Source: Alphaproteobacteria bacterium
Lineage (GTDB): Bacteria; Pseudomonadota; Alphaproteobacteria; Puniceispirillales; UBA1172
Length of the DNA: 64,000 bases
Direction: 5' to 3'
Assembly (NCBI GenBank): GCA_016778985.1
Contig: JADHOM010000001.1
Coordinates: 173,613 to 237,612 of the forward strand
Positions 27,972-44,211 of the stretch are shown here, piece by piece. Each line of letters opens with the position of its first letter. The first letter of the stretch is position 1. The notes under the pieces were generated by a model. That model saw nothing but the letters and a program-made list of their open reading frames with translations, was not told the DNA's origin and did not search any database. The translations under genes and the position numbers were made by a program.

Positions 27972-27997
27972 TTCATTTTGAATAGATTTTTTAGCTA

Positions 27998-28924
27998 ATG
28001 GAACTAGCACCTTATCTGATACTTGGCAGCATTGAGGGACTGGTCACCGCCGCCGTACTGGCGCTGATGGCTGTTGGGTTGAGCCTGGTCTTTGGGGTCA
28101 TGCGGGTCGTCAATGTTGCCCATGGTGAGTTCTTCATGCTTGGCGCGGTCTTGGCGTGGTTTGTTGCGGATATGATTGGCGGTCATCCGGCGATATCTTT
28201 TATTGCCGCCTTATTTATTGCGCCAATGCTGGTCGGCAGTCTGGCCATTGTCGCCGATACGACCATTTTGAAGCGCATCAATTATGATCCTGAGCGTACT
28301 ATCGTTGCCACGATAGGGCTGCTTTATATAATTCAGCAGGTCACCTTGATGACCTATGGGTCTAACGCCCGCCCTGTTGAGCCACCCTTTAATCAGCGCA
28401 TTTCTATTCCGTGGTTTGAATGGACAGAAAGCGGCTTGTCTATGTATTGGCCGTGGGGGCTGGGCACAACTACCTATAAGCTAGCGGTAATAGGTTTCGC
28501 CATTATTTTACTACTGGCTATTTGGCTTTTGATGACGCGAACACGCATTGGTTTGATCATGCGGGCGACACAACTTGATCGTGATGTTGCACAGGCTTAC
28601 GGGATCAATGTTGATCGTGTTTATGCTATGGTGTTTGGGCTTGGTGCTGGGCTTGCTGCTCTGGCGGCGGTGCTAATCGTGCCTATTCAGCAGGCGCATT
28701 ATTTAATGGGGCATGACCCCTTATTATTATCCTTTATTGTAGTGATTATTGGCGGTTTAGGCAGCCTTGCCGGAACGGTAGTGGCGGCGGTCTTAATCGG
28801 ATTAAGCGATGGTCTCATCTCGGTATTCTTTACGCCGACACTTGCGAAAATTATTGCCACATTAATTGTGACTTTTGTGTTGATTTTCAGACCTTCCGGA
28901 CTGCTTGGGAAGCATCGCCCATGA
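27998..28924 (+). CDS. Branched-chain amino acid-type ABC permease (LivH family)
   Basis: The 308-aa polytopic protein contains the VNVAHGEFFMLGA motif. Confidence 0.88.
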   Translation: MELAPYLILGSIEGLVTAAVLALMAVGLSLVFGVMRVVNVAHGEFFMLGAVLAWFVADMIGGHPAISFIAALFIAPMLVGSLAIVADTTILKRINYDPERTIVATIGLLYIIQQVTLMTYGSNARPVEPPFNQRISIPWFEWTESGLSMYWPWGLGTTTYKLAVIGFAIILLLAIWLLMTRTRIGLIMRATQLDRDVAQAYGINVDRVYAMVFGLGAGLAALAAVLIVPIQQAHYLMGHDPLLLSFIVVIIGGLGSLAGTVVAAVLIGLSDGLISVFFTPTLAKIIATLIVTFVLIFRPSGLLGKHRP

Positions 28925-29910
28925 GTGTGTCTGAAACAAATGCAACTAGGCCAGCCGCCAAACCGCTGACAAATGTTAAAAAGTCGCTGTATTTTCATGT
29001 TGGGTTAATCGGTGTTTTATTCCTCTTGCAATTTATCTTGCCAGCCTATCATCACGGCAATCTGGCGCGCATTATGGTGCTTGCCAGCTATGCGATGGGC
29101 TACAATATTCTCTTTGGCTATACCGGATTATTGAGCCTTGGCCATGCCATGTTTTTTGCTGCTGGCATGTATGGGATGGGATTGCCGATGGCGCATCTCG
29201 GCTGGACGCCGGAGCCAGCTTTAGTGGCTGGATTTGTTGCCGGCATAGTGGTTTCAGCAAGCATTGGCTTCCTTGCTTTACGGACAAGTGGGGTGTCATT
29301 CATGATTGTCACATTGATGTTCGCGCAAGCTGGATTTTTGACCATTTTATATTTCGGAGAATGGACACGCGGCGATGAGGGTTTTGTCATTCAGCAAGCT
29401 GAGCGTGTCATGGCAGGGTTTGATTTAAGCCAGCCTGCTAATCGCTATAACGCCGCGCTGATTTTGTTTTCGCTCTGTCTAATCTTCACCCTCAAGCTGG
29501 TTCATAGCCGCTTTGGCCGTGTCATGATTGCTATACGTGAAAACGAAGAGCGCACTCAAATGTTAGGTTATGATGTGCATTTCCATAAATGGATGGCTGT
29601 CATTATGTCGGGCACTATGGCGGCATTGGCAGGTGCCGCTTATGCGCTGCTATTTGGTTATGCGGGGGCGACGTTTGCATCGGTGCAGTATTCTATTTTC
29701 CCGCTTTTATGGGTGTTACTTGGTGGTGCCGGGACAGCATTAGGGCCGTTTATTGGCACCTTGTTTATGTTCTATCTGATTGATCTATCCAGTTCATTCA
29801 CAACAGCATATATGCTAATCGCCGGCCTCGCTTTAGTGTTGTTAACACTGTTTTTACCGCAAGGGCTGGTTGGTGAATTAAGACGGAGGGTGATGCCTTG
29901 GCTGACATGA
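28921..29910 (+). CDS. Branched-chain amino acid-type ABC permease (LivM family)
   Basis: The start overlaps the upstream stop (ATGA). The motif GYTGLLSLGHAMFFAAGMY is present. Confidence 0.88.
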   Translation: MSVSETNATRPAAKPLTNVKKSLYFHVGLIGVLFLLQFILPAYHHGNLARIMVLASYAMGYNILFGYTGLLSLGHAMFFAAGMYGMGLPMAHLGWTPEPALVAGFVAGIVVSASIGFLALRTSGVSFMIVTLMFAQAGFLTILYFGEWTRGDEGFVIQQAERVMAGFDLSQPANRYNAALILFSLCLIFTLKLVHSRFGRVMIAIRENEERTQMLGYDVHFHKWMAVIMSGTMAALAGAAYALLFGYAGATFASVQYSIFPLLWVLLGGAGTALGPFIGTLFMFYLIDLSSSFTTAYMLIAGLALVLLTLFLPQGLVGELRRRVMPWLT

Positions 29911-30632
29911 CAAAACCACATATCAGCACAAGTTCGGTGAGCCGTCATTTTGGTGGCTTGATAGCCGTTGATCAGGTTGATTTTGCTGTTCCTCGGGGTG
30001 AGATTCGCGCTATTATTGGTCCGAATGGCGCTGGTAAATCCACTTTTGTTGGCATGTTATGTGGCCGCATCCCTGTTTCTTCTGGCAAGATTATGTTTAA
30101 CGGCAAAGACGTGACCGTATTACCTGCCCATAAACGCATCCGCCAAGGCATTGCCTACACGTTTCAAATTACGTCAATTTATGGCCGCCTAAGTCTCAAG
30201 GATAATGTTCGGCTATCAACATCATGGCGTTGGGGCAGTGATGAGGCGGCACTCGAAAACAGCATAGATGAGGCGCTAAGCCGTGTCGGGCTAGAAGATC
30301 GCATGGATCAAATGGCTGGTGATTTGAGTTATGGGCATCAGCGGTTGCTAGAGATTGCTATGGGCATTAGCCAACATCCGCAACTGCTCATTCTTGATGA
30401 GCCAACGCAAGGATTAGCAGATAGTGAGATTGCCGATTTTGTTACATTAATCCGTGAGCTGGGCGGTGACATGACCATTTTGCTCATCGAACATAATATG
30501 AATGTGGTGATGGATACGGCGGATCAGATTACCGTCTTGAATCTTGGCAAAGTGCTGGCGACAGGAACGCCAGACGAGATCAGAGCTAATCGTGAGGTGC
30601 AGATTGCCTATCTGGGAGAGACTCATGCTTGA
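29907..30632 (+). CDS. ABC transporter ATP-binding protein (LivG family)
   Basis: ATG at 29907 overlaps the livM-type stop. Walker A is GPNGAGKST, the signature is LSYGHQRLLEIA, and Walker B is LLILDEP. Confidence 0.9.
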   Translation: MTKPHISTSSVSRHFGGLIAVDQVDFAVPRGEIRAIIGPNGAGKSTFVGMLCGRIPVSSGKIMFNGKDVTVLPAHKRIRQGIAYTFQITSIYGRLSLKDNVRLSTSWRWGSDEAALENSIDEALSRVGLEDRMDQMAGDLSYGHQRLLEIAMGISQHPQLLILDEPTQGLADSEIADFVTLIRELGGDMTILLIEHNMNVVMDTADQITVLNLGKVLATGTPDEIRANREVQIAYLGETHA

Positions 30633-31320
30633 GCTGATATCCGTATCATCGGGCTATGCAGACGCGCAAGTGTTAAGACAAGTCTCGCTGCAACTTAATG
30701 CCGGAGAAATCGTCTGTATTCTTGGCCGCAATGGTGCTGGTAAAACGACAATGATGAAAACAATCATGGGTCTGCTGAAAGCTGACGCCGGCCAGATCAT
30801 GTATAATGGAACTGATTTAACGACGCTATCACCGCATAAAATCGCAGGTTTTGGGATTGGCTATATCCCGCAGGGCAGACGACTTTTTGCTGAGCTTACA
30901 GTTGCCGAAAATCTTGAGATTGGATTAATGGCTGGTGGTAAATCAGTTGCAACCCGTGATAAGGTGCTGGCGATGTTTCCGCGACTGGCGGAACGGCTTG
31001 ACCAACGCGCTGATACCCTATCAGGTGGTGAGCAGCAAATGCTAGCCACTGGCCGTGCCTTATGCCTTGAGCCGCAATTATTGCTATTGGATGAGCCAAC
31101 CGAAGGTCTTCAGCCGTCAATGATTGCGTTGATCCGCGATACGGTTGTGGCGTTAAAACAGCAAGGTGTTGGTATTTTATTGGTTGAGCAGAGGGTTGAT
31201 GCGGTGCTGTCAATCGCTGATAAAGTGATGTTTCTTGAAAACGGCATGAGCCGCGATATCATGTCAGCGGATCATTTGCGTAAAAATCCAGATTTGCTGA
31301 AGAAATATATTGGCGTTTAG
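30625..31320 (+). CDS. ABC transporter ATP-binding protein (LivF family)
   Basis: ATG at 30625 overlaps the upstream stop. Walker A is GRNGAGKTT, the signature is LSGGEQQMLA, and Walker B is LLLLDEP. Confidence 0.9.
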   Translation: MLELISVSSGYADAQVLRQVSLQLNAGEIVCILGRNGAGKTTMMKTIMGLLKADAGQIMYNGTDLTTLSPHKIAGFGIGYIPQGRRLFAELTVAENLEIGLMAGGKSVATRDKVLAMFPRLAERLDQRADTLSGGEQQMLATGRALCLEPQLLLLDEPTEGLQPSMIALIRDTVVALKQQGVGILLVEQRVDAVLSIADKVMFLENGMSRDIMSADHLRKNPDLLKKYIGV

Positions 31321-31346: not shown

Positions 31347-31829
31347 TTAGCGTAACTTCATTAGCAACCGAAAGAAGAGATGTCTTTCTTTATCGCTAAG
31401 AGGCTTTAATGTTTCTTCCGATACCGCAAGGGCGGCAACTCTGATCTGGTCAAATAATTGTCTGCCTTTGGCAGTTGGCTTGAGGATAAGCCGCCGCAGG
31501 TCAGAAGGCTGGCTTTCTGATGAGATAAGCCCACGCAGTTTGAGCCTGTCGACAACGCCTTTAATGGTCGCCGCATCAATGGCAATCATCCGCCCGAGTT
31601 CATTCTGTGAGGCTTGCCCATTCTCACAAAGCTTGGTTAATGCAGAAAATTGGGTTGGGGTCAAATCTGGGATGAGGCGGCTAAATATCGACAAATGGCG
31701 TTGATTGACACAGCGCAAGATAAAACCAACTTGGTCTTCAAGCTGATAGTCAGATGTGATATCAGCCGCCATAGTGGTGGCGTCGGCATCTTGCTGTTTT
31801 TCGGTAATGGCATGAAAGACTTTGTTCAT
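31347..31829 (-). CDS. MarR family transcriptional regulator
   Basis: The 160-aa protein has a winged-HTH core (LTPTQFSALTKLCENGQASQNELGRMIAIDAATIKGVVDRLKLRGLI). It is divergent from the hydroxylase operon. Confidence 0.85.
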   Translation of the reverse strand: MNKVFHAITEKQQDADATTMAADITSDYQLEDQVGFILRCVNQRHLSIFSRLIPDLTPTQFSALTKLCENGQASQNELGRMIAIDAATIKGVVDRLKLRGLISSESQPSDLRRLILKPTAKGRQLFDQIRVAALAVSEETLKPLSDKERHLFFRLLMKLR

Positions 31830-31872
31830 CCTAACCCTTTCTATAATCTATATTGACAGCAACTCATCAAAA

Positions 31873-31894
31873 TAGCAAATTAGTTTGTATGCTA
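31873..31894. promoter_or_regulatory. Inverted repeat TAGCA-N12-TGCTA in the marR/hydroxylase divergent spacer (candidate operator)
   Basis: Read directly. The half-sites are short, so this is weak. Confidence 0.2.
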
Positions 31895-31901
31895 ACAGTT
31901 T

Positions 31902-32789
31902 ATGATGTCTGTCATGTCCTCTAATACTACATATATTCGGCCTTTAACCATAGAAGATGCTGTTGATGTGCTATCGACTTCGGCGGCAGCGGTTATTGCG
32001 GCTGGTTGCACGGATTTATTTCCCCTGACGTCCGCCCCTCGCATGACTGGTCAGGTGCTGGATGTAACTGGCATTAAAGACATGCGCGGCATTACTGATA
32101 ATGGTGACATGCGCAGATTTGGCGGTGCTACTACATGGACAGATATTATCCGCGCTGATCTGCCGCCGGCCTATGATATGCTCAAATTAGCAGCCCGCGA
32201 AATTGGCTCTATTCAAATTCAAAATGCTGGAACGATTGCAGGTAATCTCTGTAATGCGTCACCGGCGGCGGATAGTATTCCGTGCTTGCTGGCGCTGGAT
32301 GCGTCTGTTGAGCTGACCTCAGCATCTGGCTTAAGGCAACTGCCGCTTAGTGATTTTATTGTCGGTCCTCGGAAAACGTTGCGCCAAGCAGATGAGATTA
32401 TGACAGCGGTGTTGGTGCCAAAATCCTCTGAGACGGGAGTATCATCTTTCCGTAAACTGGGGACACGCAAATATCTTATTATTTCTATCGTCATGGCCGC
32501 CGCGCGAATTGAGGTCAAAGATAACCGCATTACCCATGCCGCGCTATCATTAGGGTCGTGCAGTCCGGTTGCGGTCAGGCTAGATAAGGTTGAGGCAGAT
32601 TTGATCGGCATGGATATCCACAACGCCACTATCCCGGCATCACATTATGTTGAGGAGACAGATATTGAGGCGACAATTAATCCTATTGACGATGTGCGCG
32701 GCACTGCCAGCTATCGAATTACGGCGGCAAAAACGCTGTTATGTGAGGCGATTGATAACTGCCTCAATCAGGTGAGGAGTGGGGGATGA
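31902..32789 (+). CDS. Xanthine dehydrogenase family FAD-binding (medium, CoxM-like) subunit
   Basis: It has an FAD_binding_5-like N-terminus (AAGCTDLFPL) and a C-terminal CO-dehydrogenase-flavoprotein-like domain (DDVRGTASYR). Its stop overlaps the next start. Confidence 0.85.
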   Translation: MMSVMSSNTTYIRPLTIEDAVDVLSTSAAAVIAAGCTDLFPLTSAPRMTGQVLDVTGIKDMRGITDNGDMRRFGGATTWTDIIRADLPPAYDMLKLAAREIGSIQIQNAGTIAGNLCNASPAADSIPCLLALDASVELTSASGLRQLPLSDFIVGPRKTLRQADEIMTAVLVPKSSETGVSSFRKLGTRKYLIISIVMAAARIEVKDNRITHAALSLGSCSPVAVRLDKVEADLIGMDIHNATIPASHYVEETDIEATINPIDDVRGTASYRITAAKTLLCEAIDNCLNQVRSGG

Positions 32790-35545
32790 GTGATCAGGAA
32801 CAGTTTACGCTAACCGTAAATGGCACCAAAGCAAATGTGTCCCGCCCAGCTGGTATGCGGCTAAGCGAAGTCTTGCGTGAGGAATTGCATCTGACGGGTA
32901 CAAAAATAGGATGCAATGCTGGCGATTGTGGGGCCTGTACCGTTCTTGTTGATGGTGAGCCTGTGTGTTCATGTCTGATGACGCTGGCGAAAGCCGATGG
33001 CTGTCATATTGAAACGGTGGAAAGCTTGGCTAATGGATCAAAGCTATCGTTACTGCAACAAGCCTTTAGTCGTCATGGTGCGGCTCAATGTGGAATTTGT
33101 ACACCGGGGATGTTGATGGCGGCGGCACCTTTAATTCGCGCCAACAAAGCCCCAAGCCGTGCCGAGGTTGAGGACGCGCTTGGTGGGGTTCTCTGCCGCT
33201 GTACGGGTTATGCTAAGATTATTGATGCGGTGATGGATGCCGCGATGGAAAAACCTGCCATGCCTATGCCTGTCCGACATGGTGCTGTTGGGGCAAGGGT
33301 GGAACGGCTTGACGGCATCCCTAAACTTAATGGTGATGAGGTTTTTGGTGCTGATTACTGGCCCGAAAATGCGCTTTACCTGCGGGTGCTTCGCTCCCCT
33401 TATCATTCGGCACAATTTACCATTGGGGATGTAGCAGCATGGGTGGCTAAGCATGATCTCATTAGTCATGTTTTTTTAGCTAGTGATATTGATGGTGAAA
33501 ATCAGTTTGGCGTTATCCCGCCAATGGCTGATCAGCCAGCGCTTGCCGTTGATGCGGCGAGATTCAAGGGCGAAGCGGTCGCCATCATCGTCGGCCAGTC
33601 GCAGGATGTCGCGGCAATGGATATATCCGACTTTCCCATTGAATGGACGGAATTGCCAGCCATTATGGATGTCGATGTGGCGCTTGCCGATGGCACAACA
33701 TTGATCCATGCGCATCGTGAAAACAATATCCTGATCAGTGGCATCGTCAAACATGGCGATATTGATAAGGGATTTGGAGCAGCAGATCATATTGCTGAGA
33801 TGTCATTTTCTACCAGTTATGTAGAGCATGCTTATATCGAGCCAGAAGCAGGGGTGGCGTGGATGGATGGCGATACGGTTGTCATTCAAGCCTGTACCCA
33901 GGCGCCGATTATGGATCGTGATGATACCGCCAAGGTGCTTGGTTTGCCGGTGGAGAAAATACGCATTATTCCCTCAGCAACAGGTGGCGGCTTTGGCGCA
34001 AAGCTAGATGTCTCTGTTCAGCCCTTGCTTGGTCTGGTGGCGCTCAAAACCGGTCAGCCATGCCGCATTGTCTATTCGCGAAACGAGTCTATGATGTCAA
34101 CGACGAAACGCCATCCGGGGGTTATGCAGGCGCGCATTGCGGCTGATAAAAAAGGCCATATCACGGCAATGGAATTCCAAGGTGATTTTAATACCGGTGC
34201 CTATGCCAGTTGGGGGCCGACGGTTGCATCACGGGTACCTATCCATGCCTCTGGCCCATATAAAACGCCAAATTATTTAGCCAAAGCTCGCGCCATTCAT
34301 ACCAATGGCCCGCCATCAGGGGCGTTTCGCGGCTTTGGTGTACCGCAGTCAACGATCATTCAAGAAGCGCTATATGATGAACTGGCAGAAAAATGTGGTA
34401 TCGATCGATTAGCCTTCAGACGTCTCAACGCCTTAAAGAATAATGATATCACGATCTGTAACCAAACGCTACCAGCGGTCGGTATCGATGATTGTCTGGC
34501 GGCGTTAGAGCCGTTCTGGCAAAAGCACCAGCAACAGATTGCTGATTTTAATGCTAAGAATAGCCGCAAAAAACGCGGTATTGGCGTGTCATCATGTTGG
34601 TATGGATGCGGTAATACGGCTTTGCCAAACCCGTCGACGATCAGGCTGGGGATTACAGCAGATGGTCAGGTTGTCTTGCATCAAGGGGCGGCAGATATTG
34701 GTCAAGGCTCAAACACGGTCATACCCCAGATTTGCGCTGATGCGCTCGGCCTCCCATTAGCGCATATCTCAATTATTGGCGGCGATACAGCTATCACCCC
34801 CGATTGCGGCAAGACCTCGGCTTCACGCCAGACTTTCATAACAGGTAAAGCCGCTATGTTAGCAGGACAAGCCCTACGCCGACAGATTCTGCGGCTCAGT
34901 AATCTAGGTGATGATGCGATTATTGAAATGGCAGAAGGGTCTATTCATGTCAGCCACGGCGATAAGCAGCATGAGATTGCGCTTAGTGAGATGGCAGCAA
35001 ATCCCTATGGCTATGTACTGATGGCAGAGGAAACCTATAACCCGCCAACTGAGGAGCTGGATGCGTTTGGTCAGGGTAAGCCTTATGCGCTTTATGGGTT
35101 TGGGGCACATGCCGCCGTGGTTGAGGTGGATATGCATTTAGGGACGGTGAAGGTATTACATATTTCCGCCGCTCATGATTTGGGCAAGGTCGTCAATCCG
35201 CTATTGGCAGAAGGACAAATAGATGGCGGTATTGCGCAAGGGCTAGGTATGGCCTTGATGGAAGAATATATCCCTGGCCGCACCGAAAACCTGCATGATT
35301 ATCTCATCCCGTCTATCGGCGATATGCCAGAGATTGAATATCATCTGATTGAAGTGCCAGACCCTGAAGGCCCGATGGGTGTTAAGGGGTTGGGTGAGCA
35401 TGTCTTGATCCCAACCGCCCCGGCTATTCTTAATGCTATTACCAATGCCACTGGCGGCGCTAGATTATATCAAACACCTGCTGTTCCGCATCGGGTATTG
35501 GCGGCCATTCAGGCAAATAATAATGTCAATGAGGCCGCAGAATGA
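32786..35545 (+). CDS. Molybdenum hydroxylase: fused [2Fe-2S] small-subunit domain + molybdopterin-binding large subunit (aldehyde oxidase/xanthine dehydrogenase family)
   Basis: The two FeS motifs are CNAGDCGAC and CGICTPGM...CRCTGY. These are followed by a/b-hammerhead and Moco domains, and a C-terminal catalytic-Glu context (GLGEHVLIPTAPAILNAITNATG). No CODH AYxCSFR loop was seen. Confidence 0.9.
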   Translation: MSDQEQFTLTVNGTKANVSRPAGMRLSEVLREELHLTGTKIGCNAGDCGACTVLVDGEPVCSCLMTLAKADGCHIETVESLANGSKLSLLQQAFSRHGAAQCGICTPGMLMAAAPLIRANKAPSRAEVEDALGGVLCRCTGYAKIIDAVMDAAMEKPAMPMPVRHGAVGARVERLDGIPKLNGDEVFGADYWPENALYLRVLRSPYHSAQFTIGDVAAWVAKHDLISHVFLASDIDGENQFGVIPPMADQPALAVDAARFKGEAVAIIVGQSQDVAAMDISDFPIEWTELPAIMDVDVALADGTTLIHAHRENNILISGIVKHGDIDKGFGAADHIAEMSFSTSYVEHAYIEPEAGVAWMDGDTVVIQACTQAPIMDRDDTAKVLGLPVEKIRIIPSATGGGFGAKLDVSVQPLLGLVALKTGQPCRIVYSRNESMMSTTKRHPGVMQARIAADKKGHITAMEFQGDFNTGAYASWGPTVASRVPIHASGPYKTPNYLAKARAIHTNGPPSGAFRGFGVPQSTIIQEALYDELAEKCGIDRLAFRRLNALKNNDITICNQTLPAVGIDDCLAALEPFWQKHQQQIADFNAKNSRKKRGIGVSSCWYGCGNTALPNPSTIRLGITADGQVVLHQGAADIGQGSNTVIPQICADALGLPLAHISIIGGDTAITPDCGKTSASRQTFITGKAAMLAGQALRRQILRLSNLGDDAIIEMAEGSIHVSHGDKQHEIALSEMAANPYGYVLMAEETYNPPTEELDAFGQGKPYALYGFGAHAAVVEVDMHLGTVKVLHISAAHDLGKVVNPLLAEGQIDGGIAQGLGMALMEEYIPGRTENLHDYLIPSIGDMPEIEYHLIEVPDPEGPMGVKGLGEHVLIPTAPAILNAITNATGGARLYQTPAVPHRVLAAIQANNNVNEAAE

Positions 35546-37005
35546 CCAAAAAAGCATCAGAAAAAATTAGATGCGATGCCTGTCCGGTGATGTGTTATAT
35601 CGCTGATGGCAATTCAGGTGCTTGTGATCGTTATGCAAACAAAGATGGCCAGATTATCCGGCTTGACCCTCTGACAATTTTGGATCGCCGAATAGCCGCA
35701 GGCGATGCTGTCAAACCATTTCTAGGAGCTAGCTGGGATGGTAGCCTCGGCCAAGAAAATGAGATGTTTGTTACCGCCATTGGGGCAGGCACAACCTATC
35801 CAGACTATAAGCCGGCGCCATTTATTGTTGGGCAATATCACAATGATGCTGATTTTGTGACGGTTGTAACCGAAGCTATTTTTTCCTATTGTGGGGTTAA
35901 GGTTAAAATTGATACTGATCGCCATCTCGGAAAAGAAGGTGCGGTTATTCGCGTTAATGATGAGCCTGTGGGCTTGGTCATTACCAGTGAATATGGCTCT
36001 CAAATGCTATCATTGGGCGGTGTTGATCATCTGACGGGCGGCAGCAAAGCCGAAGGTCGAGTGACGTGTGATACGCTGATGAAGCTGTGTAATAAAGAAG
36101 CTGTTGAGCTAACCATTGATGATGGCTCTACGGTCGTGGTGCAAGCTGGCAAGCCGCCAATTGTTGATGGTAAAGCGGAAATGAGAATGCGGGTTGGCTG
36201 CGGCTCGGCAACAATCGGTATGTTTGCCTCGCAATGGGTTGGGCTGGTTGATGAGGTTGTTGTTGTCGATGATCATATCACTGGCGTTGTCTCTGAGCAC
36301 CAAGCCGGCAAGGTGCTGGATTGGCCTGATACCGGCATCACGATAAATGGCCGCAGATCAACACCTGGCCGCTATTTTCAAGTGGCAGAGCCGGGGCTGG
36401 GATGGGGCGGCACCGACCTAGAGGATCCGCTAAAAATACTTGGCGCATGGCGACCAGCCAAAGGCGCAAGACCTGGGCTAACGTTGTTAATGGTATCGAC
36501 AACGGGTGAGCATTCTGGCTATTTTGTTCTTGATGATGATCTAACGCCGCAGCCACATCCAATGCCGAAAGCCTTGCAGGATAGCGTTAATTTGATCTCA
36601 GAAAATTGTGAACCGGCGCTTTGCACAGTTATGTTTATGGGGGGTGCTGGTGGCTCATTACGGTCGGGGGTAACCAAGAACCCGATCCGCTTGACCGCAT
36701 CGGTACAGGCCCGAAAAACCAAAGTCACTTGCGGCGGCATAGAAGGTTTTGTCTGGCCGGGTGGCGGTATCACGATTATGGTCGATGTATCAAAAATGCC
36801 AGATCAGGCTTTTGGCTATGTGCCGACGCCGGCGATTGTGGCGCCGCTGGAGTTTACCGTACCCAAAGACGAATATATTGCGCTTGGCGGTCATCAAGAT
36901 GCCATCCGCTCAGTGGCTGATATTATGGCAACAGGTGGCGAGTATTCCAAAAATAGTCAGGTCGTATTAACCACAGATACTGAAGATTTTGACCATGATG
37001 ATTAA
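35542..37005 (+). CDS. Cys-rich Fe-S protein resembling entries annotated as 6-hydroxynicotinate reductase (HNR-like)
   Basis: The start overlaps the hydroxylase stop (ATGA). The N-terminal cluster motif is C11-x2-C14-x3-C18-x9-C28 (CDACPVMCYIADGNSGAC). Family naming is from memory of similar N-termini and of the same neighbours (UPF0280, AA_synth); it was not verified. Confidence 0.5.
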   Translation: MTKKASEKIRCDACPVMCYIADGNSGACDRYANKDGQIIRLDPLTILDRRIAAGDAVKPFLGASWDGSLGQENEMFVTAIGAGTTYPDYKPAPFIVGQYHNDADFVTVVTEAIFSYCGVKVKIDTDRHLGKEGAVIRVNDEPVGLVITSEYGSQMLSLGGVDHLTGGSKAEGRVTCDTLMKLCNKEAVELTIDDGSTVVVQAGKPPIVDGKAEMRMRVGCGSATIGMFASQWVGLVDEVVVVDDHITGVVSEHQAGKVLDWPDTGITINGRRSTPGRYFQVAEPGLGWGGTDLEDPLKILGAWRPAKGARPGLTLLMVSTTGEHSGYFVLDDDLTPQPHPMPKALQDSVNLISENCEPALCTVMFMGGAGGSLRSGVTKNPIRLTASVQARKTKVTCGGIEGFVWPGGGITIMVDVSKMPDQAFGYVPTPAIVAPLEFTVPKDEYIALGGHQDAIRSVADIMATGGEYSKNSQVVLTTDTEDFDHDD

Positions 37006-37025
37006 ACTTTGATGAAAGTCATTCT

Positions 37026-37946
37026 ATGCTAGCAACAGCCTCATCGCTTCAGGCCAGTTGGCTGGCTCCTGATAACCGCCTGCATTTGTCGCATGGGCCT
37101 ATTGATTTGATCATTAAGGCAGAGGGGCAATCCGCGCAACTTGCCTATCGCAAAGCCGTTCATGCTATGCAGCATTTACTTGAACGGCTCGTTGTTGAGC
37201 TGCCTGATTTGCGCCTGCGAACGGCTAGACCGGAACGCTATCTGCACCCGATTGCACGGCGCATGGCGCGGGCAACAGGCGGTTATGGCAAGCGCTTTGT
37301 TACCCCTATGGCGGCGGTCGCAGGGGCAGTAGCGGATCATGTGCTTGCGGCAATGACTGCCGAAGCCGGGCTGACCAAGGCCAGCGTCAATAATGGTGGT
37401 GATATCGCGTTTTGGCTGGCTGATGGTCATAAGGTAACGGCATTAATGGCCAATCTGGATACCGCAAAATGCACTATCTGCTCAGATACTATCTGGCGCG
37501 GCATGGCGACATCTGGATTTAGCGGGCGTAGTTTTTCGCTTGGTATTGCTGATGCGGTTGTTGTGCTTGCCGATAACGCGGCGAATGCAGATGCTGCGGC
37601 AACTATGATCGCTAATGCGGTAAACCTGCCCCCTGATCTGCCGCCATATCATCCTGATATGCAAGCGATCAGCCGTATTCCTGCCCATGATCTTTTGCCC
37701 GAAAGTGATCTAGGCAACCAGCTGGTGACGCGCCAAGTCGGGGCGCTATCTGCGGCGTCAATCAATTATGCCTTAAATGCTGGCGAAGACGAAACACGGG
37801 CAATTATGGCGATTAAACCCATCGCAGGTGCATTAATTAGGGTCAAAGATCATATCCGTGTTGTTGGTCTGAATCATAACTTGGATCAGAACCTTGGATC
37901 AAACTTTCTATGCCAACGCTACCACCAAAAGGAGATGATACCGTGA
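37026..37946 (+). CDS. UPF0280-like (ApbE-related fold) protein
   Basis: The 306-aa protein has ApbE-like stretches (MAAVAGAVAD, NNGGDIA). It sits between the HNR-like and AA_synth genes. The assignment is from memory. Confidence 0.5.
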   Translation: MLATASSLQASWLAPDNRLHLSHGPIDLIIKAEGQSAQLAYRKAVHAMQHLLERLVVELPDLRLRTARPERYLHPIARRMARATGGYGKRFVTPMAAVAGAVADHVLAAMTAEAGLTKASVNNGGDIAFWLADGHKVTALMANLDTAKCTICSDTIWRGMATSGFSGRSFSLGIADAVVVLADNAANADAAATMIANAVNLPPDLPPYHPDMQAISRIPAHDLLPESDLGNQLVTRQVGALSAASINYALNAGEDETRAIMAIKPIAGALIRVKDHIRVVGLNHNLDQNLGSNFLCQRYHQKEMIP

Positions 37947-37948
37947 CA

Positions 37949-38524
37949 ATGTTCCCCATTCGGAAAACCCAGCTTTTTCTTGAAACGATTTTTCACGAAG
38001 GTGGGCCAGCCCCTGAAACGCCGCGCCTGCGTGCTGCTATGGTCGCTGTTGTCAGCAATCCCTTTGCCGGGGCTTATCATGAGGATTTACAATCTGCTAT
38101 GGATGATTTGAAACCGCTGGGGCTGATGATGACGGATGAGCTGATTGATTCGCTAGGGGGATTAGATGGTATTGATGGCTATGGCAAAGCTGGGCTTGCT
38201 GGCGAAGATGGTGAGCTCGAACAAACCGCACTTTGGCATGTGCCGGGCGGCTATGCGATGCGCGAAAGATTAGGTGAGGCTAAGGCGATTGTGCCGTCTT
38301 CAATGAAAGTGGGTGGCGCCGGATGCGCTATTGATATCCCGTTAGGGCATATTAATGCCGCCTATGTCAGGAGCCATTTTGATGCTATGGAAGTGCGTCT
38401 GTCTGATGCCCCTCGGCGTGGTGAGATTATGTTCTGTCTGGCCATGACCAAGGGGCCACGTATTCATCACCGCATGGGGGGATTAGGTGTTGAAGATGTT
38501 AAGGGTGAGGATGGCTTGCGCTAA
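37949..38524 (+). CDS. Amino-acid-synthesis (AA_synth/DUF1185) family protein, paralog 1
   Basis: The start is ATG at 37949, or GTG at 37943 overlapping the upstream TGA, with AAGGAG at 37929. The sequence (MFPIRK..NPFAG..GKAGLAGEDGELE..SHFDAMEV..DAP..GPRIHHRMGG) is clearly homologous to the ORF at 44212-44814. Confidence 0.6.
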   Translation: MFPIRKTQLFLETIFHEGGPAPETPRLRAAMVAVVSNPFAGAYHEDLQSAMDDLKPLGLMMTDELIDSLGGLDGIDGYGKAGLAGEDGELEQTALWHVPGGYAMRERLGEAKAIVPSSMKVGGAGCAIDIPLGHINAAYVRSHFDAMEVRLSDAPRRGEIMFCLAMTKGPRIHHRMGGLGVEDVKGEDGLR

Positions 38525-38557
38525 GTCGCCAAGTTTGTGCGCCGCAGGCAAACCAAT

Positions 38558-39340
38558 TTAATCAACAAATGCGCGTTCAACAACATATTGCCCGGGCATG
38601 CTGTTTGAGCCTTCGGTAAATTGCGCCGCATCTAAGATCGCCTTAACATCCTTGAGCATCGCCATTGACCCACATATCATGACGCGATCATGTGCTGGAT
38701 CAAGCGGCGGCAGATTGAGATGGGCATAGAGCTGGCCATTTTCCATGAGTGTCGTAATACGCCCCATAAAGCTGGATTCTTCCCGCGTTGTCGTTGTCAC
38801 CAGCGTTAAGCGGTCGGCAAGTTCACCGACTAATGGGTCTGTCTTGGTCGCCGCAACCGTATTGATGGAATAGGCTAGCTCTGCCACTTCACGGCAACTA
38901 TGGGTGACAATCAGAGCTTCAAACTTGTCATAGGCTTCGGGGTCACGGATAAGTGATGCAAATGGCGCAAATCCTGTCCCTGTTGAGATCATCCAAAGCC
39001 TCTTGCCTGGCAATAGCGCATCAAGAACTAGGGTGCCGGTCGGTTTTTTGCGGAACCAAACCTGATCACCGACTTTGATATTTTGCAGATGTTCGGTTAA
39101 AGGCCCGCCCGGAACTTTGATTGAATAAAACTCCAGCGTTTCATCCCATGATGGGCTGGCGATGGAATAGGCGCGCCAGACAGGTTTTTCCCCGGGCAGG
39201 CCAATCATCACAAACTCACCTGACCGAAAACGGAAACTCGCTGGCCGCGTTAAGCGGAAACGGAATAAGCGGTCAGTATAATGTTCAACCTCGGTAACGG
39301 TTTCAGAAAAAGCAGAATCAGGACAGGTGAAGCTCATCAT
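38558..39340 (-). CDS. fpr: Ferredoxin--NADP(+) reductase (bacterial Fpr type)
   Basis: The likely start is the ATGATG at 39340. The FAD motif is RAYSIAS and the NADP motif is GTGFAPF. The C-terminus is ...YVVERAFVD. Confidence 0.88.
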   Translation of the reverse strand: MMSFTCPDSAFSETVTEVEHYTDRLFRFRLTRPASFRFRSGEFVMIGLPGEKPVWRAYSIASPSWDETLEFYSIKVPGGPLTEHLQNIKVGDQVWFRKKPTGTLVLDALLPGKRLWMISTGTGFAPFASLIRDPEAYDKFEALIVTHSCREVAELAYSINTVAATKTDPLVGELADRLTLVTTTTREESSFMGRITTLMENGQLYAHLNLPPLDPAHDRVMICGSMAMLKDVKAILDAAQFTEGSNSMPGQYVVERAFVD

Positions 39341-39482
39341 ATTCTCACTTAGTTTTGTTGGTTTTGGTATTGCGCTACTGACCAATCTTGGGGTTGACTA
39401 TTCTTTATCTTGATTACAGGGTTAAAGCGGATAACGCGGTTATAATTTGTTTGTATACGAATGAATTATAAACCTCAAGTTA

Positions 39483-40127
39483 TTATTTTATCACGGTCTT
39501 CCAGGTGCGATTATCCACTATATTTTTTAAATCATCTGGCGTATCAACATCAAGAAAGCATCTGCTATCATTTATAGCAAGTGGGTTAATTGCCTCAGGG
39601 TGTGTTTTGATAATATCTCTGCCGCCTTTATCCCCTGTTATTTGTTCAAGCATCGGGAAAAATCGTTGCCCCCAGATAACAGGATGTGCGGTTCTATCCG
39701 CAATCACTGGCTCCGCAATTATTGGCAGGGTAATCGCCTCATCAGGTTGTGTGAGGCGCTTATGGTGGCGGATCAAATCATTGACCAGTGGCACTGTGAT
39801 ATTGGGCATATCTCCCAGCATGATCATGACATCAGTGGTGCGCGCATTTATATGACTAAGCCCATGTCGGATAGAGCCGCTCATGCCTTCAGCATAATCA
39901 GAATATTCGTGCAAATCTAATGGCATATCAGATAAGGCAGCGGCGATAAGATTGGCGTCATGACCTAGAATAACCATAACCTCATCAAGCCCACTAGCCA
40001 GCATAGTATTGGCGATGCGGCGAATCATTGGCTGGTTGCTGTTATCAGCAGGCATGAGCAGTTTATTAGCTTTGCCCATGCGTTTGGATTGTCCAGCGGC
40101 TAATAGGATTCCGCATATATATCGCAT
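39483..40127 (-). CDS. mocA: MobA-like nucleotidyltransferase, probable molybdenum cofactor cytidylyltransferase
   Basis: The N-terminal motif GILLAAGQSKRMG is present. It sits immediately downstream of xdhC on the same strand. Confidence 0.78.
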   Translation of the reverse strand: MRYICGILLAAGQSKRMGKANKLLMPADNSNQPMIRRIANTMLASGLDEVMVILGHDANLIAAALSDMPLDLHEYSDYAEGMSGSIRHGLSHINARTTDVMIMLGDMPNITVPLVNDLIRHHKRLTQPDEAITLPIIAEPVIADRTAHPVIWGQRFFPMLEQITGDKGGRDIIKTHPEAINPLAINDSRCFLDVDTPDDLKNIVDNRTWKTVIK

Positions 40128-40131
40128 TGCT

Positions 40132-41133
40132 TTATCCGTTTGTTGTCATTGCTGCTGATATCTTGCCCCGATAGACAGCGATCAGTTGCGCCAGAATTGA
40201 AACGGCAATCTCAGCCGGAGTTTTCGCCATAATTGCTAATCCGGCGGGGGCGTTAATGCGGGCAAGCTGATCATCATTAAAGCCATTTGCTTTTAATCGC
40301 TCACAGCGTTTGGCGTGAGTGCGCGTGCTGCCTAAACTGGCGATATAAAACGCTGGTTTTCCAAGTGCCACCTGTAGCGCCGCATCATCGAGTTTAGGAT
40401 CATGGGTTAGTGTCACAATCGCTGTATGCTCATCAATATTGGCACTCTCTAATAACTCATCAGGCCAGTCGGTGATAATGGCGATATTAGGAAAGCGCTC
40501 AGCATTGGCAAAATGGCGGCGCGGATCAATGATAGTGGTGTTAAAGCCAGCAGCAATGGCCATGGGGGCGAGATGCTGGCTGATATGTACCCCGCCAATG
40601 ATATAAAACCTTGGTTCAGGTGGGATAACCAAATAAAAATGCTTAGCATCATCATTACATTGATTGGTTGGATATAGATTTGCCGCCTGCTCTGGGCTTG
40701 CCACCCGCATCTGATGCTGATGGAGCTGGCAATCAATAGCAATCATTTGGTGCTGCGCCGACTGTGTTTTGACATAAGAAAACAGTTGAGCCGCATCATT
40801 CTCAAAGGCAGAGGCGGCACAGACCCAAACCGATATTGCGCCGCCACAAGATAATCCGACTTGCCAAGCATCGGCGTCAGCAACCGCAAAATCTAATCTT
40901 TGCGATGTTTTTCTGGCCATAACGTCATGTGCGGCTGTGATAACAGCGCTTTCAACACAGCCGCCAGACACTGAACCTGCAATCTGTTCATCATCACGGA
41001 TAATCATGATGCTGCCTGCTGGCCGTGGTGATGACCCCCATGTCTGGATAACAATAGCAATAGCCAGATTATGCCCAGACTGATGCCAGTCAGCGGCAAT
41101 GGTCAGAATATTGTCATTAGATAATGGCCGCAT
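40132..41133 (-). CDS. xdhC: XdhC/CoxI family molybdoenzyme maturation protein
   Basis: Two-domain architecture: XdhC_CoxI N-domain (WGSSPRPAGS...GSVSGGCVE) and a Rossmann-like C-domain (FYIIGGVHISQ). Confidence 0.85.
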   Translation of the reverse strand: MRPLSNDNILTIAADWHQSGHNLAIAIVIQTWGSSPRPAGSIMIIRDDEQIAGSVSGGCVESAVITAAHDVMARKTSQRLDFAVADADAWQVGLSCGGAISVWVCAASAFENDAAQLFSYVKTQSAQHQMIAIDCQLHQHQMRVASPEQAANLYPTNQCNDDAKHFYLVIPPEPRFYIIGGVHISQHLAPMAIAAGFNTTIIDPRRHFANAERFPNIAIITDWPDELLESANIDEHTAIVTLTHDPKLDDAALQVALGKPAFYIASLGSTRTHAKRCERLKANGFNDDQLARINAPAGLAIMAKTPAEIAVSILAQLIAVYRGKISAAMTTNG

Positions 41134-41265
41134 AGCTGTCCCCGGCTAAAATATTTCACGTTGCATCAGAATACAATTTTATCTTAGAACATGCATCAGA
41201 TGTTAACAATGACGCTGAAACACGCTAAGATATTATTAATTAATACCTTATATAAAGGGGGTAAC

Positions 41266-41763
41266 ATGCGGTCTTTCTCATTATTGATTATTGGCGGTAT
41301 TTTTGGTGCCATGATCGGGTTTTTAGTAGCAGCAGGTTATGGCATTACACTGGATGGGCATGACCATGCAACAGACCATCATAATCCTGGTGCCCATGAT
41401 AGTGCAGAAAAAACAGAACATAAGCATGATAAGATGATTGATCTTTCTGCTATGGCTAACCCGCCATCGGTTAAACTAATGGCGGTGGAAGACAGCGTAT
41501 CGGGCTGGAATCTTCATGTCCAAACTGAGCATTTTACGTTTTCTGCTGATCAGGCAGGAGGCGAACATGCGCCTGGGTTCGGGCATGCGCATCTCTATGT
41601 TGATGGCGTTAAACTATCTAGACTTTATGGAGAATGGGCGCATTTAGGTGGCTTGGCGCCGGGCGAGCATGTGATCCGTGTCACCTTAAATGCCAATAGT
41701 CATGAAGCGCTCACCGTTGGCGGTAATATGATCGCTGCAGACATCACCGTCATGCAAAAATAA
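41266..41763 (+). CDS. Hypothetical membrane-anchored His-rich protein
   Basis: ATG at 41266 follows AAAGGGGG. One N-terminal TM segment is followed by a His-rich stretch (GHDHATDHHNPGAHDSAEKTEHKHD). A beta-rich domain with GFGHAHLYVDG follows. Confidence 0.5.
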   Translation: MRSFSLLIIGGIFGAMIGFLVAAGYGITLDGHDHATDHHNPGAHDSAEKTEHKHDKMIDLSAMANPPSVKLMAVEDSVSGWNLHVQTEHFTFSADQAGGEHAPGFGHAHLYVDGVKLSRLYGEWAHLGGLAPGEHVIRVTLNANSHEALTVGGNMIAADITVMQK

Positions 41764-42710: not shown

Positions 42711-44150
42711 ATGACAGATTTTTGTAATATGACAGCAACCGCATTGGTTGCTGGGATTCAAGCTGGTGACTTTGCATGTGCCGAAGTGATGGCAGCATCC
42801 ATTGCCAGAATTGAGGCAGTTGATCCGGCGGTTAATGCCATGGTAACACGTGATTTTGATCGCGCCATGGCCAGCGCAAAGGCGGTTGACGCCAAACGCC
42901 TAAGCAACGAAGATATTGGGCCGCTAGCTGGCCTGCCCATAGGAATTAAAGACCTCGAAGCAACCAAAGGCATAACAACAACCTATGGATCACTGCCGCA
43001 TAAAGACCATGTTCCTGATCAGGATGATGTGTCAGTTGCCAATGTAAAGGCTAAGGGCGGCATTGTTATCGGCAAAACTAATACCCCTGAATATGGTACT
43101 GGTGGCAACACATGGAATAATGTATTCGGCGTCACCACCAATCCATTTGATACAGATAAAACGCCTGCTGGCTCATCTGGTGGGTCTGCCGTGGCATTAG
43201 CAACTGGCATGGTACCGCTGGCCACAGGATCAGATTTTGGTGGCAGTCTGCGCACGCCTGCTAGCTTCTGCGGGGTTGTTGGCTTCCGCCCTAGCCCTGG
43301 TCTCGTTCCCGATGAAAATAAAGCGGTTGGTCTGGCGCCTTTTGCAGTATTAGGGCCGATGGCACGGGTGGTTGCTGATGCTGTGCTGTTATGTGACGCG
43401 CAATCATCATTTGATGCGCGTGATCCGTTCTCAAGGGCGAGGCAAGGCGCTATGGCACCGTCCATGCAAGCGGCTGATTTGAGCCAGATGACAGCGGCGA
43501 TATCAGCTGATTTAGGAGTTGCTCCGGTTGCTAAGGCGATTAGGCAGCTGTTTGATCAGCGGATGCGGTATCTGACATCAAGCTTTGCTGAGGCACAAAA
43601 ACGTGATCCGGTGTTTGATCATATCCATGATTGTTTTGAGGTTTTGCGTGGTGTCAGTTATGTCGCTGGATGTAAAGATATTGTCGACAAGCACCGTGAT
43701 GTTGTCAGCCCATTGATGATTGATAATGTTGATAGAGCTTTAGCATACAGCCTTGCCGATGTTGCCGATGCCTCGCATACACAAAGCATTTTGGCGAAAG
43801 CATGGCTAGCCTTATTTGATGAGGTTGATGTTGTCATTTGTCCAGCTGCGTCGGTAGCACCTTATCCGCATAAGGATAAGTTTGTCGCCGAAATTGATGG
43901 GGTTAAAATGCCAACTTATATGACATGGCTGGCACTCAGCTATGCGCCAACTATGGTCATGGCATGTTCGCTGGTTGTCCCATGTGGGGTTGATGCTGAT
44001 GGCCTGCCCTTTGGGATACAGTTGCTAGGGCCGCCGGGGGGTGATCGCAAATTGCTGGAAATCGGCCTTGCCATAGAAGCCGTGTTAGCGGCAGAACCAG
44101 AAACCATGCGCCCCCACCCAGACATCAATAAGCTGATATCAGCACGCTAA
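42711..44150 (+). CDS. Amidase-signature family amidase
   Basis: The Ser-cisSer-Lys signature is present: IGIKD ... GSSGGSAVALATGMVPLATGSDFGGSLRTPASFCG. Confidence 0.9.
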   Translation: MTDFCNMTATALVAGIQAGDFACAEVMAASIARIEAVDPAVNAMVTRDFDRAMASAKAVDAKRLSNEDIGPLAGLPIGIKDLEATKGITTTYGSLPHKDHVPDQDDVSVANVKAKGGIVIGKTNTPEYGTGGNTWNNVFGVTTNPFDTDKTPAGSSGGSAVALATGMVPLATGSDFGGSLRTPASFCGVVGFRPSPGLVPDENKAVGLAPFAVLGPMARVVADAVLLCDAQSSFDARDPFSRARQGAMAPSMQAADLSQMTAAISADLGVAPVAKAIRQLFDQRMRYLTSSFAEAQKRDPVFDHIHDCFEVLRGVSYVAGCKDIVDKHRDVVSPLMIDNVDRALAYSLADVADASHTQSILAKAWLALFDEVDVVICPAASVAPYPHKDKFVAEIDGVKMPTYMTWLALSYAPTMVMACSLVVPCGVDADGLPFGIQLLGPPGGDRKLLEIGLAIEAVLAAEPETMRPHPDINKLISAR

Positions 44151-44211
44151 TATTAACACCATAATATAAACTAAGCCGATATCAGCACTTTTATTGATCT
44201 GGAGGCTGGGG

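Follow-up and report, generated by a model that had tools for sequence, protein, structure and literature searches.

The window analysed in this study is a 64,000-nucleotide stretch of contig JADHOM010000001.1 from an alphaproteobacterium of the order Puniceispirillales. Its central operon (31347-41133) encodes a molybdenum hydroxylase, a cysteine-rich protein of 487 residues, a UPF0280 protein and a DUF1185 (AA_synth) protein. We consider it likely that the region encodes the upper part of a reductive nicotinate pathway of the Eubacterium barkeri/Azorhizobium type in a marine SAR116-type alphaproteobacterium, with the hydantoinase/oxoprolinase-family pair HyuAB as the ring opener. In the proposed scheme, nicotinate would be imported by a Liv-type ATP-binding cassette (ABC) system (26.5-31.3 kb) and hydroxylated at C6 by the FAD subunit and the fused FeS-molybdenum cofactor (Moco) subunit, matured by MocA and XdhC. 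The 487-residue protein, a homologue of 6-hydroxynicotinate reductase (Hnr), would then convert 6-hydroxynicotinate to 1,4,5,6-tetrahydro-6-oxonicotinate (THON) with NADPH delivered via Fpr. Hydroxylation and reduction would be redox-neutral with Hnr fed in this way. The lactam of THON would be opened by the ATP-dependent HyuAB (21.0-24.9 kb) and not by an enamidase, and the enamine/2-formylglutarate would be processed further, possibly with the aid of DUF1185.

Conservation of the Core Operon

The gene content of the window, the homologies of its proteins and their co-occurrence in other genomes were observed directly. Domains were assigned by Pfam and NCBIfam scans, and the gene junctions were read from the sequence. 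Stop and start codons overlap as ATGA at 32786-32789 and 35542-35545, and a gap of 20 nt precedes the UPF0280 start at 37026. The UPF0280 stop (37944-37946) is followed by CA and then by the DUF1185 ATG at 37949, a gap of 2 nt. An AAGGAG box lies upstream of this ATG; a metagenome gene caller chose an overlapping GTG start instead. A sequence-only reading of the operon had described the gene order, the overlaps, the short gaps, a divergent MarR gene and the convergent fpr, mocA and xdhC genes, and all of these were present in the open reading frame (ORF) map and at the junctions. An identical Hnr was found on marine metagenome contigs with the gene order unchanged, and the nearest named relatives of the window Hnr came from metagenome-assembled genomes of Puniceispirillales (SAR116).

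When one genome of each species was scanned with a motif, at least 594 relatives were confirmed. The best 80 loci, all from Alphaproteobacteria, were compared, and high-GC loci were mapped by gene calling filtered on GC at third codon positions together with tblastn. Co-occurrence was counted where the flanks were complete over 10 kb, which applied to 53 loci. Near hnr, the UPF0280 gene was present in all 53, the FAD and Moco subunits in 52 each, AA_synth/DUF1185 in 44, MarR in 42 and the ABC importer genes in 40-45. The co-occurrence of the five core genes outside this genome, which the sequence-only reading had set as a test, held at 44-53 of 53 loci per gene. The five-gene core was found in nearly all of the 80 loci with its order conserved, usually with the ABC transporter and MarR; the position of MarR was variable and always within the cluster. 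The order hnr-UPF0280-AA_synth was common to Alphaproteobacteria, Betaproteobacteria and Firmicutes. This conserved recurrence in the 53 loci indicates that the core arrangement is not a chance juxtaposition. The fpr gene recurred in the cluster in many genomes and adjoined hnr or hyuAB in Mesorhizobium, Sagittula, Sulfitobacter, Neorhizobium and Comamonadaceae. The mocA and xdhC genes occupied the position seen in the window only in the closest SAR116 relatives.

The 487-Residue Protein as a Probable 6-Hydroxynicotinate Reductase

By homology, the 487-residue protein belongs to the Hnr family. Its homologues filled more than 8000 protein clusters of a 90%-clustered collection, and a HMMER scan of 1.84 billion representatives returned 1245 family members. 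Homologues with 75-89% identity carry the NCBI name 6-hydroxynicotinate reductase, and residues 9-467 (459 residues) are 42% identical to the Hnr of Sporomusa ovata DSM 2662. The likeness to Hnr that the sequence-only reading had suspected was borne out by these named homologues. The clusters of Sporomusa ovata and Thermanaeromonas toyohensis run in the order ndhF, ndhS, ndhL, ndhM, enamidase, hnr, UPF0280 and AA_synth. They continue with genes whose domains are those of later E. barkeri fermentation steps: hydroxyacid dehydrogenase, serine-dehydratase-like, B12 mutase, PrpF, MutL, isocitrate lyase/phosphoenolpyruvate mutase and aconitase domains. Each core protein of the window was 31-52% identical to its counterpart there. 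We take these two clusters to be the nicotinate fermentation cluster of E. barkeri, which was reportedly described (NdhFSLM, Hnr, enamidase) by Alhapel and colleagues in 2006. According to the same work, the clostridial Hnr reportedly binds a covalent flavin and, besides its ferredoxin-like 2x[4Fe-4S] domain, has one more Fe-S cluster. A Bradyrhizobiaceae homologue is 42% identical to E. barkeri Hnr, and its strain degrades nicotinate via 6-hydroxynicotinate (PMC3511419).

Distant Hnr homologues (30-43% identity) are about 510 residues long with an additional N-terminal 2x[4Fe-4S] ferredoxin domain. The family alignment showed that the window Hnr is a short form without this Fer4 dicluster domain. 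It contains 11 cysteines, and Cys11, Cys14, Cys18 and Cys28 (Cx2Cx3Cx9C) and Cys220 in the motif GCGSA are invariant throughout the family. The first four are predicted to form one Fe-S site. An AlphaFold2 model from a 44-sequence alignment reached a predicted local distance difference test score (pLDDT) of 87.6 and a predicted template modelling score of 0.85; an earlier model from 13 close homologues (pLDDT 46) was not used. A Foldseek search of the model against the PDB gave no match at E<=0.001, with template modelling (TM) scores of at most 0.13. The ApbE-type flavinylation motif [ST]GA[ST] was not conserved in Hnr; the nearest stretch is GCGSAT, and its last position varies. Within this stretch (residues 219-224), Ser222 adjoins Cys220. 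The residue was Ser in every examined Hnr with an adjacent UPF0280 gene, whereas three of the four distant homologues that lack this neighbour had Gly or Ala; the sample is very small. Ser222 may mark a cofactor attachment site.

Two apparent Hnr fusions (P0174 and P0005) were rejected as frameshift or assembly artefacts, and the ATGA overlap is the probable source of apparent Moco-Hnr fusions. Four further loci (L086-L089) contained divergent Hnr homologues (36-38% identity) near TctABC or TRAP transporters, Peptidase_M19, Amidohydro_2, carboxyltransferase and RidA genes, and these loci had neither UPF0280 nor DUF1185. The divergent homologues are probably paralogous subfamilies, and the Hnr family probably also reduces other hydroxylated N-heterocycles.

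The Hydroxylase and Its Probable Substrate

The fused subunit was compared with solved structures. Chains L, M and S of E. barkeri nicotinate dehydrogenase (Ndh, PDB 3hrd) matched it with 253, 213 and 126 bits. The best single PDB match was the Desulfovibrio aldehyde oxidoreductase, of the same fused architecture (394 bits), and the summed NdhL, NdhM and NdhS score exceeded it. The C-terminal third matched NdhM with 216 bits, and the next match had 143. One chain of 919 residues thus spans NdhS, NdhL and NdhM, which are split subunits in E. barkeri. With NdhF from the nicotinate clusters of Sporomusa and Thermanaeromonas, the FAD subunit shared 31-32% identity. The selenium ligand at the molybdenum of E. 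barkeri-type Ndh leaves no trace in a protein sequence. Tyr606 of the window protein aligns with Tyr13M of Ndh, so that its W-Y-G falls on W12-Y13-G14; modelling places Tyr13M in a hydrogen bond with the nitrogen of the nicotinate ring (PMC5746545). The assignment of the molybdenum enzyme as an N-heterocycle hydroxylase, made in the sequence-only reading, is therefore supported, with Ndh as the closest solved structure and Tyr13M conserved. The hydroxylate-then-reduce module proposed there likewise gains support from the homology to Ndh and Hnr and from the Firmicutes clusters. Homology and gene context point to Ndh and Hnr activities for the two enzymes.

A nicotinamidase gene adjoined the cluster in 24 of the 84 loci compared, SAR116 loci included, and its best solved relative was the Acinetobacter nicotinamidase (PDB 2wt9, E 1e-73). 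In two SAR116 loci, it occupied the slot held by fpr-mocA-xdhC in the window. Two plasmids, one from Neorhizobium and one from Comamonadaceae, had NicA/NicB-type genes instead of the xanthine dehydrogenase (XDH)-type hydroxylase but retained hnr-UPF0280-DUF1185. The nicotinamidase neighbours, the NicAB substitution, the relatedness to Ndh with the conserved tyrosine, and the presence of the hnr-UPF0280-DUF1185 trio in fermentation clusters make it highly probable that the substrate is nicotinate (and nicotinamide). The sequence-only reading had left the substrate open; all of these lines point to nicotinate.

In plasmid-borne and some chromosomal versions of the hnr cluster, a gene for a VanA-like Rieske oxygenase alpha subunit adjoined the binding-protein gene (L090, 23529-24599; L091, 24058-25125; L082, 709-1776). 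This oxygenase may remove the methyl group from a pyridine carboxylate, trigonelline for example, and so supply the same pathway, and Fpr could be its reductase in those loci.

HyuAB as a Proposed Replacement of Enamidase

No enamidase homologue was found in the 64-kb window even at E<=10, nor in the 80 related alphaproteobacterial loci. Enamidase orthologues were found in the hnr clusters of Comamonadaceae, Sulfitobacter, Rhizobium and Firmicutes; the Comamonadaceae protein matched PDB 2vun with E 2e-111, and the others were 48-71% identical to it. An Amidohydro_1 gene of Shimia, 7 kb downstream, was considered and is not an enamidase. Orthologues of the HyuAB pair adjoined the hnr operon at 24 loci or more (identity about 62% for HyuA and a median of about 77% for HyuB). 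This number is a lower bound because the layout seen in the window puts hyuAB just past the 10-kb flank. In many genera, hyuAB lay co-oriented or divergent directly at the hnr operon.

The plasmid collection gave the clearest contrast. Among 26 plasmids with hnr, 16 carried an enamidase gene and 10 a HyuA orthologue (at least 58% identity), each 0.5-7.6 kb from hnr; none carried both and none carried neither. The two groups comprised about five enamidase lineages and about nine HyuAB lineages. The best PDB matches of HyuA were the N-methylhydantoinase 7hk5 (E 2e-121) and 6yra, deposited as 5-oxoprolinase (E 2e-99). The caprolactamase models of NCBIfam scored 483 and 311 bits against HyuA and HyuB, with cutoffs of 1000. 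Because the two genes are complementary on plasmids, the relatives of HyuAB hydrolyse cyclic amides, and the Hnr product is a six-membered lactam, we infer that HyuAB is a non-orthologous replacement of enamidase and opens the THON ring in its place. No description of a HyuAB-type variant of the nicotinate pathway was found in the literature, nor one of THON as a substrate of the hydantoinase/oxoprolinase family.

A related gene set was observed on plasmid pSMED01 of Sinorhizobium medicae (L094, 12001-24539), where hyuA-hyuB are followed, on the opposite strand, by a DUF1185 gene with 64% identity to that of the window and by a MarR gene. The locus continues with an isochorismatase-family hydrolase, two inosine-uridine nucleoside hydrolases and a Bmp-type ABC transporter, and has no hnr, UPF0280 or ndh gene. 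The set resembles a lactam pathway tied to nucleosides, with HyuAB and DUF1185 as the shared parts.

Electron Supply, UPF0280 and DUF1185

In two proteins of about 970 residues (P0128 and P0133), the Hnr core was fused behind Fer4, Fer4_20 and Pyr_redox_2 domains, which by their domain content form a GltD/PreT-like NAD(P)H-FAD-FeS module. The window Hnr has no built-in ferredoxin domain, so its electrons would most likely pass from NADPH through Fpr to Hnr. This is the most economical reading, and the gene context suggests Fpr as the donor. Of the earlier proposal that Fpr feeds electrons to the pathway, the recurrent partnership of fpr with the cluster stands as an observation; the donor role itself is deduced from that context. 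In one locus (L082, 13104-15172), the hnr-UPF0280-DUF1185 operon was followed by a tungsten/molybdenum aldehyde:ferredoxin oxidoreductase (AFOR_N/C) and a 7Fe-type ferredoxin. This suggests that aldehyde oxidation may regenerate reduced ferredoxin for Hnr there.

The UPF0280 gene was bound to hnr from Firmicutes to Proteobacteria, and their stop and start codons often overlapped. Pfam ApbE (PF02424) did not match the window UPF0280 protein. A faint PF02424 match was found on its Sporomusa orthologue, and the precomputed family PF27030 (AbpE_bact) was assigned to a gene of the same length (306 residues) and position on contigs with the identical Hnr. The UPF0280 profile matched only one PDB entry, the uncharacterised structure 2o34 (E 9e-12). 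The Hnr of E. barkeri reportedly carries a covalently bound flavin, which makes a role of UPF0280 in flavin transfer or maturation attractive. From its context, UPF0280 may be a maturation factor (flavin transfer) or a subunit of Hnr.

DUF1185 copy 1 was 47-51% identical to the product of the gene after UPF0280 in the Firmicutes nicotinate clusters. Solved DUF1185 structures have a chorismate-mutase-like fold (PMC2954203), and TgnF, a DUF1185 protein, reportedly stimulates the aldehyde dehydrogenase step of trigonelline catabolism (work cited in PMC7913881). The role of TgnF and the presence of DUF1185 with HyuAB in the absence of hnr favour a role on the ring-opened enamine/2-formylglutarate, which we propose with low confidence from the gene context. 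Two other ideas were discarded on the evidence of the Sporomusa and Thermanaeromonas clusters: that UPF0280 and DUF1185 are confined to short, ferredoxin-less Hnr, and that DUF1185 marks a decarboxylating aerobic route.

It is possible, and we put it forward tentatively, that in many marine and soil Alphaproteobacteria HyuAB replaces enamidase, and UPF0280 and DUF1185 are dedicated to the pathway: UPF0280 would install or hold the flavin of an Hnr whose fold differs from all solved structures, and DUF1185 would process the labile product, enamine/2-formylglutarate.

Weighing of Alternative Explanations

Several observations weigh against the proposed pathway. The link to the characterised E. 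barkeri Hnr is indirect and runs through the named homologues and PMC3511419, and for HyuAB-type clusters and for the host organism the pathway has been assigned from genes alone. The NCBIfam scores of HyuAB, Fpr and MocA fall under the equivalog cutoffs. The enamidase lineages number only about five because the plasmid census holds many near-identical Sulfitobacter plasmids. Some Mesorhizobium loci have neither HyuAB nor enamidase within 10 kb, so the linkage is not universal. The orthologous hyuAB-DUF1185-marR set of S. medicae lies beside nucleoside hydrolases without hnr, so HyuAB may act on a different lactam. One alternative is that the upper pathway is as proposed and the ring is opened by an enamidase elsewhere in the genome or by the 42.7-46.0 kb module, with HyuAB serving a carboxylation step or another lactam. 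In its favour, no more than 64 kb of the genome lies in the window, carboxylases also belong to the HyuAB family, HyuAB and DUF1185 are found without hnr in S. medicae, RidA recurs beside distant Hnr homologues, and the nearest relatives keep the amidase-hydrolase-RidA-aldehyde dehydrogenase module in synteny with the cluster. That module was, however, present in only 1-3 of 84 loci (the closest SAR116 relatives), whereas HyuAB sits directly at the hnr operon in many genera and is strictly complementary to enamidase on 26 of 26 hnr plasmids. We regard this possibility as unlikely, though it deserves consideration.

It is rather improbable that another pyridine or pyridone carboxylate (a breakdown product of trigonelline, N-methylnicotinamide or homarine, or else picolinate or isonicotinate) is the substrate and that nicotinate is not physiological in marine SAR116 bacteria. 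The divergent Hnr homologues in other contexts do indicate that the family is not confined to one substrate, which also counts against our assignment; the VanA-like Rieske oxygenase of the plasmid clusters suggests a methylated precursor, and the window has no pncA. On the other side, the window has no Rieske gene, sister SAR116 loci hold a nicotinamidase at the fpr-mocA-xdhC slot, the counterparts of the core genes sit in complete nicotinate fermentation clusters, the tyrosine in contact with the ring nitrogen of nicotinate has been kept, and NdhM is far ahead of all other structural relatives. We assign a very small probability to the idea of a xanthine/purine, CO or aldehyde oxidoreductase operon of a generic kind, with unrelated hypothetical genes downstream by chance, and the evidence already contradicts it. 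The Desulfovibrio aldehyde oxidoreductase is the best full-length PDB match with the same fusion, and the top NCBIfam rows are aldehyde oxidoreductase and xanthine dehydrogenase models, all far under their cutoffs. Yet the sum of NdhS, NdhL and NdhM is higher, NdhM dominates the C-terminal part, the hydroxylase is translationally coupled to hnr, the five-gene order is kept from Firmicutes to Alphaproteobacteria, and no purine-catabolic or cox genes lie nearby. The sequence-only reading had named two outcomes that would tell against it, and neither applies: the 487-residue protein is related to Hnr, and the five genes co-occur elsewhere.

Comparison with Known Systems

The putative pathway of the window shares with the E. 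barkeri cluster an XDH-family hydroxylase closest to Ndh with Tyr13M, and an Hnr homologue; the hnr-UPF0280-DUF1185 trio is shared with E. barkeri-type clusters of Firmicutes. In contrast to E. barkeri, NdhS, NdhL and NdhM are fused in the window, Hnr has no N-terminal 2x[4Fe-4S] domain, the enamidase and the B12-dependent lower pathway are absent, and Fpr and HyuAB are added. The host of the window is also aerobic and marine. A conserved proteobacterial nicotinate cluster has been reported from Azorhizobium caulinodans (AZC_2790-2804), Bradyrhizobium (blr3818-3830) and strain SG-6C (PMC3511419). The presumed reductive route via THON and the aerobic alphaproteobacterial host are the same there. 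By its description (PMC3511419), that cluster has an enamidase, whereas the window and the 80 loci do not and HyuAB is frequent among them.

HyuA and HyuB have the two-subunit build of 5-oxoprolinase, caprolactamase and N-methylhydantoinase, with strong similarity, and ATP-driven hydrolysis of a cyclic amide is proposed for them as well. They differ from this family in that they score far under the caprolactamase cutoffs and in the proposed substrate, a six-membered enamide lactam (THON). The nic cluster of Pseudomonas putida has the same first step, from nicotinate to 6-hydroxynicotinate. There, decarboxylative hydroxylation and ring cleavage of 2,5-dihydroxypyridine by a dioxygenase follow, whereas the window would use reduction by Hnr; domain scans of the window revealed no nicC- or nicX-type genes.

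In Acinetobacter baylyi, DUF1185 is likewise part of a pyridine-ring catabolic cluster, as TgnF (cited in PMC7913881). TgnF is reported to act on the aldehyde dehydrogenase step after hydrolytic release of a formyl/enamine dicarboxylate, which it stimulates, and the trigonelline pathway differs by a flavin oxygenase that cleaves the ring upstream. Dihydropyrimidine dehydrogenase (PreT/PreA) follows the same logic, from NAD(P)H through FAD and Fe-S clusters to the C=C bond of a lactam heterocycle, but the catalytic part of Hnr has no similarity to it in sequence or fold.

Wider Anatomy of the Window

The features of the window are given in Table 1. The functional unit is larger than the operon considered by the sequence-only reading: HyuAB (21028-24874) and the transporter (26458-31320) belong to it. 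That reading had held that the rest of the nicotinate route was missing. The absence of enamidase from the window agrees with this, but the upstream HyuAB and transporter genes had been overlooked.

Table 1. Genes of the putative nicotinate region and of a possible downstream module, with the support for each assignment.
Feature	Coordinates	Strand	Support and remarks
HyuB, hydantoinase B/oxoprolinase family	21028-22866	-	Pfam Hydantoinase_B, E 1e-153; NCBIfam caprolactamase beta 311 bits (cutoff 1000)
HyuA, hydantoinase A/oxoprolinase family	22781-24874	-	Pfam Hydant_A_N, Hydantoinase_A, Hydant_A_C
Polytopic membrane protein, no family	24969-26510	+	Hydrophobic; directly upstream of binding-protein gene
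Periplasmic substrate-binding protein, Liv/urea-type ABC importer	26593-27912	+	Pfam Peripla_BP_6; putative nicotinate import
ABC importer permeases	27998-28924, 28921-29910	+	Pfam BPD_transp_2 (two)
ABC importer ATPases	~29907-30632, 30625-31320	+	Pfam ABC_tran (two)
MarR-family regulator	31347-31829	-	Pfam MarR; divergent from catabolic operon, 72-nt intergenic region
FAD subunit, NdhF-like	31902-32789	+	Pfam FAD_binding_5, CO_deh_flav_C; putative nicotinate hydroxylase
Fused FeS-Moco subunit, 919 aa	32786-35545	+	Pfam Fer2, Fer2_2, Ald_Xan_dh_C, MoCoBD_1, MoCoBD_2; 2x[2Fe-2S]
Hnr homologue, 487 aa, short form	35542-37005	+	No Pfam/NCBIfam model; homology to named Hnr
UPF0280/"AbpE_bact", 306 aa	37026-37946	+	NCBIfam NF003322, 285 bits (cutoff 290)
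DUF1185/AA_synth, copy 1	37949-38524	+	Pfam AA_synth, E 1e-62; PDB 3byq, 2qtp
Fpr-type ferredoxin/flavodoxin-NADP+ reductase	38558-39385	-	Pfam FAD_binding_6, NAD_binding_1; NCBIfam ferredoxin-NADP reductase 135 bits, under cutoff
MocA-like molybdenum cofactor cytidylyltransferase	39483-40127	-	Pfam NTP_transf_3; TIGR03310, 128 bits (cutoff 186)
XdhC-family Moco insertion chaperone	40132-41133	-	Pfam XdhC_CoxI, XdhC_C
Amidase (possible downstream module, weak)	42711-44150	+	Pfam/NCBIfam
DUF1185, copy 2 (possible downstream module, weak)	44212-44814	-	Pfam/NCBIfam
Alpha/beta hydrolase (possible downstream module, weak)	44847-45653	-	Pfam/NCBIfam
RidA (possible downstream module, weak)	45650-46039	-	Pfam/NCBIfam
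Aldehyde dehydrogenase (possible downstream module, weak)	46221-47705	+	Pfam/NCBIfam

The listed hyuA and hyuB ORFs overlap at the 5' end of the listed ORF, and the stop/start boundary between them is provisional. The pair is divergent from the membrane-protein and ABC importer genes. The binding-protein start at 26593 was taken from a metagenome gene call (L092), and the mechanical ORF start is 26458. In the same locus, the gene call for fpr gives 259 residues with the end at 39337. The binding-protein gene was syntenic across related loci, and a "putative nicotinate ABC transporter" was described in the proteobacterial nicotinate cluster (PMC3511419). The membrane protein at 24969-26510 had no match in Pfam and NCBIfam scans, and its position was kept in about 30 related loci. 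Such conservation hints at a component of the nicotinate cluster, a transporter or a sensor, that had escaped recognition. We propose that MarR controls the cluster. Promoter and terminator scans of the window gave results at chance level only, and no Rfam families or tRNAs were found in it.

The module at 42711-47705 was syntenic only in the closest SAR116 contigs. Its DUF1185 copy 2 was 37% identical to copy 1 and is not an orthologue of the second in-operon copy of the plasmids. A 190-residue protein at 41191-41763, adjacent to a TauE-family exporter, has a single membrane helix and a stretch rich in histidine (DGHDHATDHHNPGAHD...HKHD). It matched no family and was syntenic in SAR116 relatives, where it follows pncA.

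Further downstream (47739-54818) lie genes for an ADP-forming acyl-CoA synthetase, an acyl-CoA dehydrogenase, BKACE, a GlxA-type AraC regulator, a 3-hydroxyacyl-CoA dehydrogenase and an enoyl-CoA hydratase. This cluster resembles carnitine/gamma-butyrobetaine catabolism; alternatively, it could serve glutarate or beta-oxidation steps after nicotinate. A glutamine-synthetase-like gene and three glutamate-synthase-like subunits (GATase, GXGXG, Glu_synthase) follow at 54831-59190, in a pattern predicted for the N-methylglutamate pathway of methylamine use, and a thiamine pyrophosphate enzyme lies beside them at 59341-60996.

Significance

Descriptions of this cluster type date from 2006 and 2012, and RefSeq names its key gene; the sequence-only claim of an uncharacterised N-heterocycle pathway was thus overstated. 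Since the core is already annotated, the value of the region lies in three gaps: whether HyuAB stands in for enamidase, the roles of UPF0280 and DUF1185, and the structure and cofactors of Hnr. The HyuAB variant and the roles of UPF0280 and DUF1185 are what is new here. Cultured carriers with genetic tools exist in Sagittula, Sulfitobacter and Mesorhizobium.

If the proposals are true, UPF0280 and DUF1185 would receive their first functions, and the oxoprolinase family would gain a new class of substrate. Marine microbes exchange the B-vitamins nicotinate and nicotinamide. The cluster occurs in roseobacters, SAR116 bacteria and rhizobia and is very common (at least 594 species representatives), and so it probably sets the consumption of vitamin B3 in seawater and the rhizosphere.

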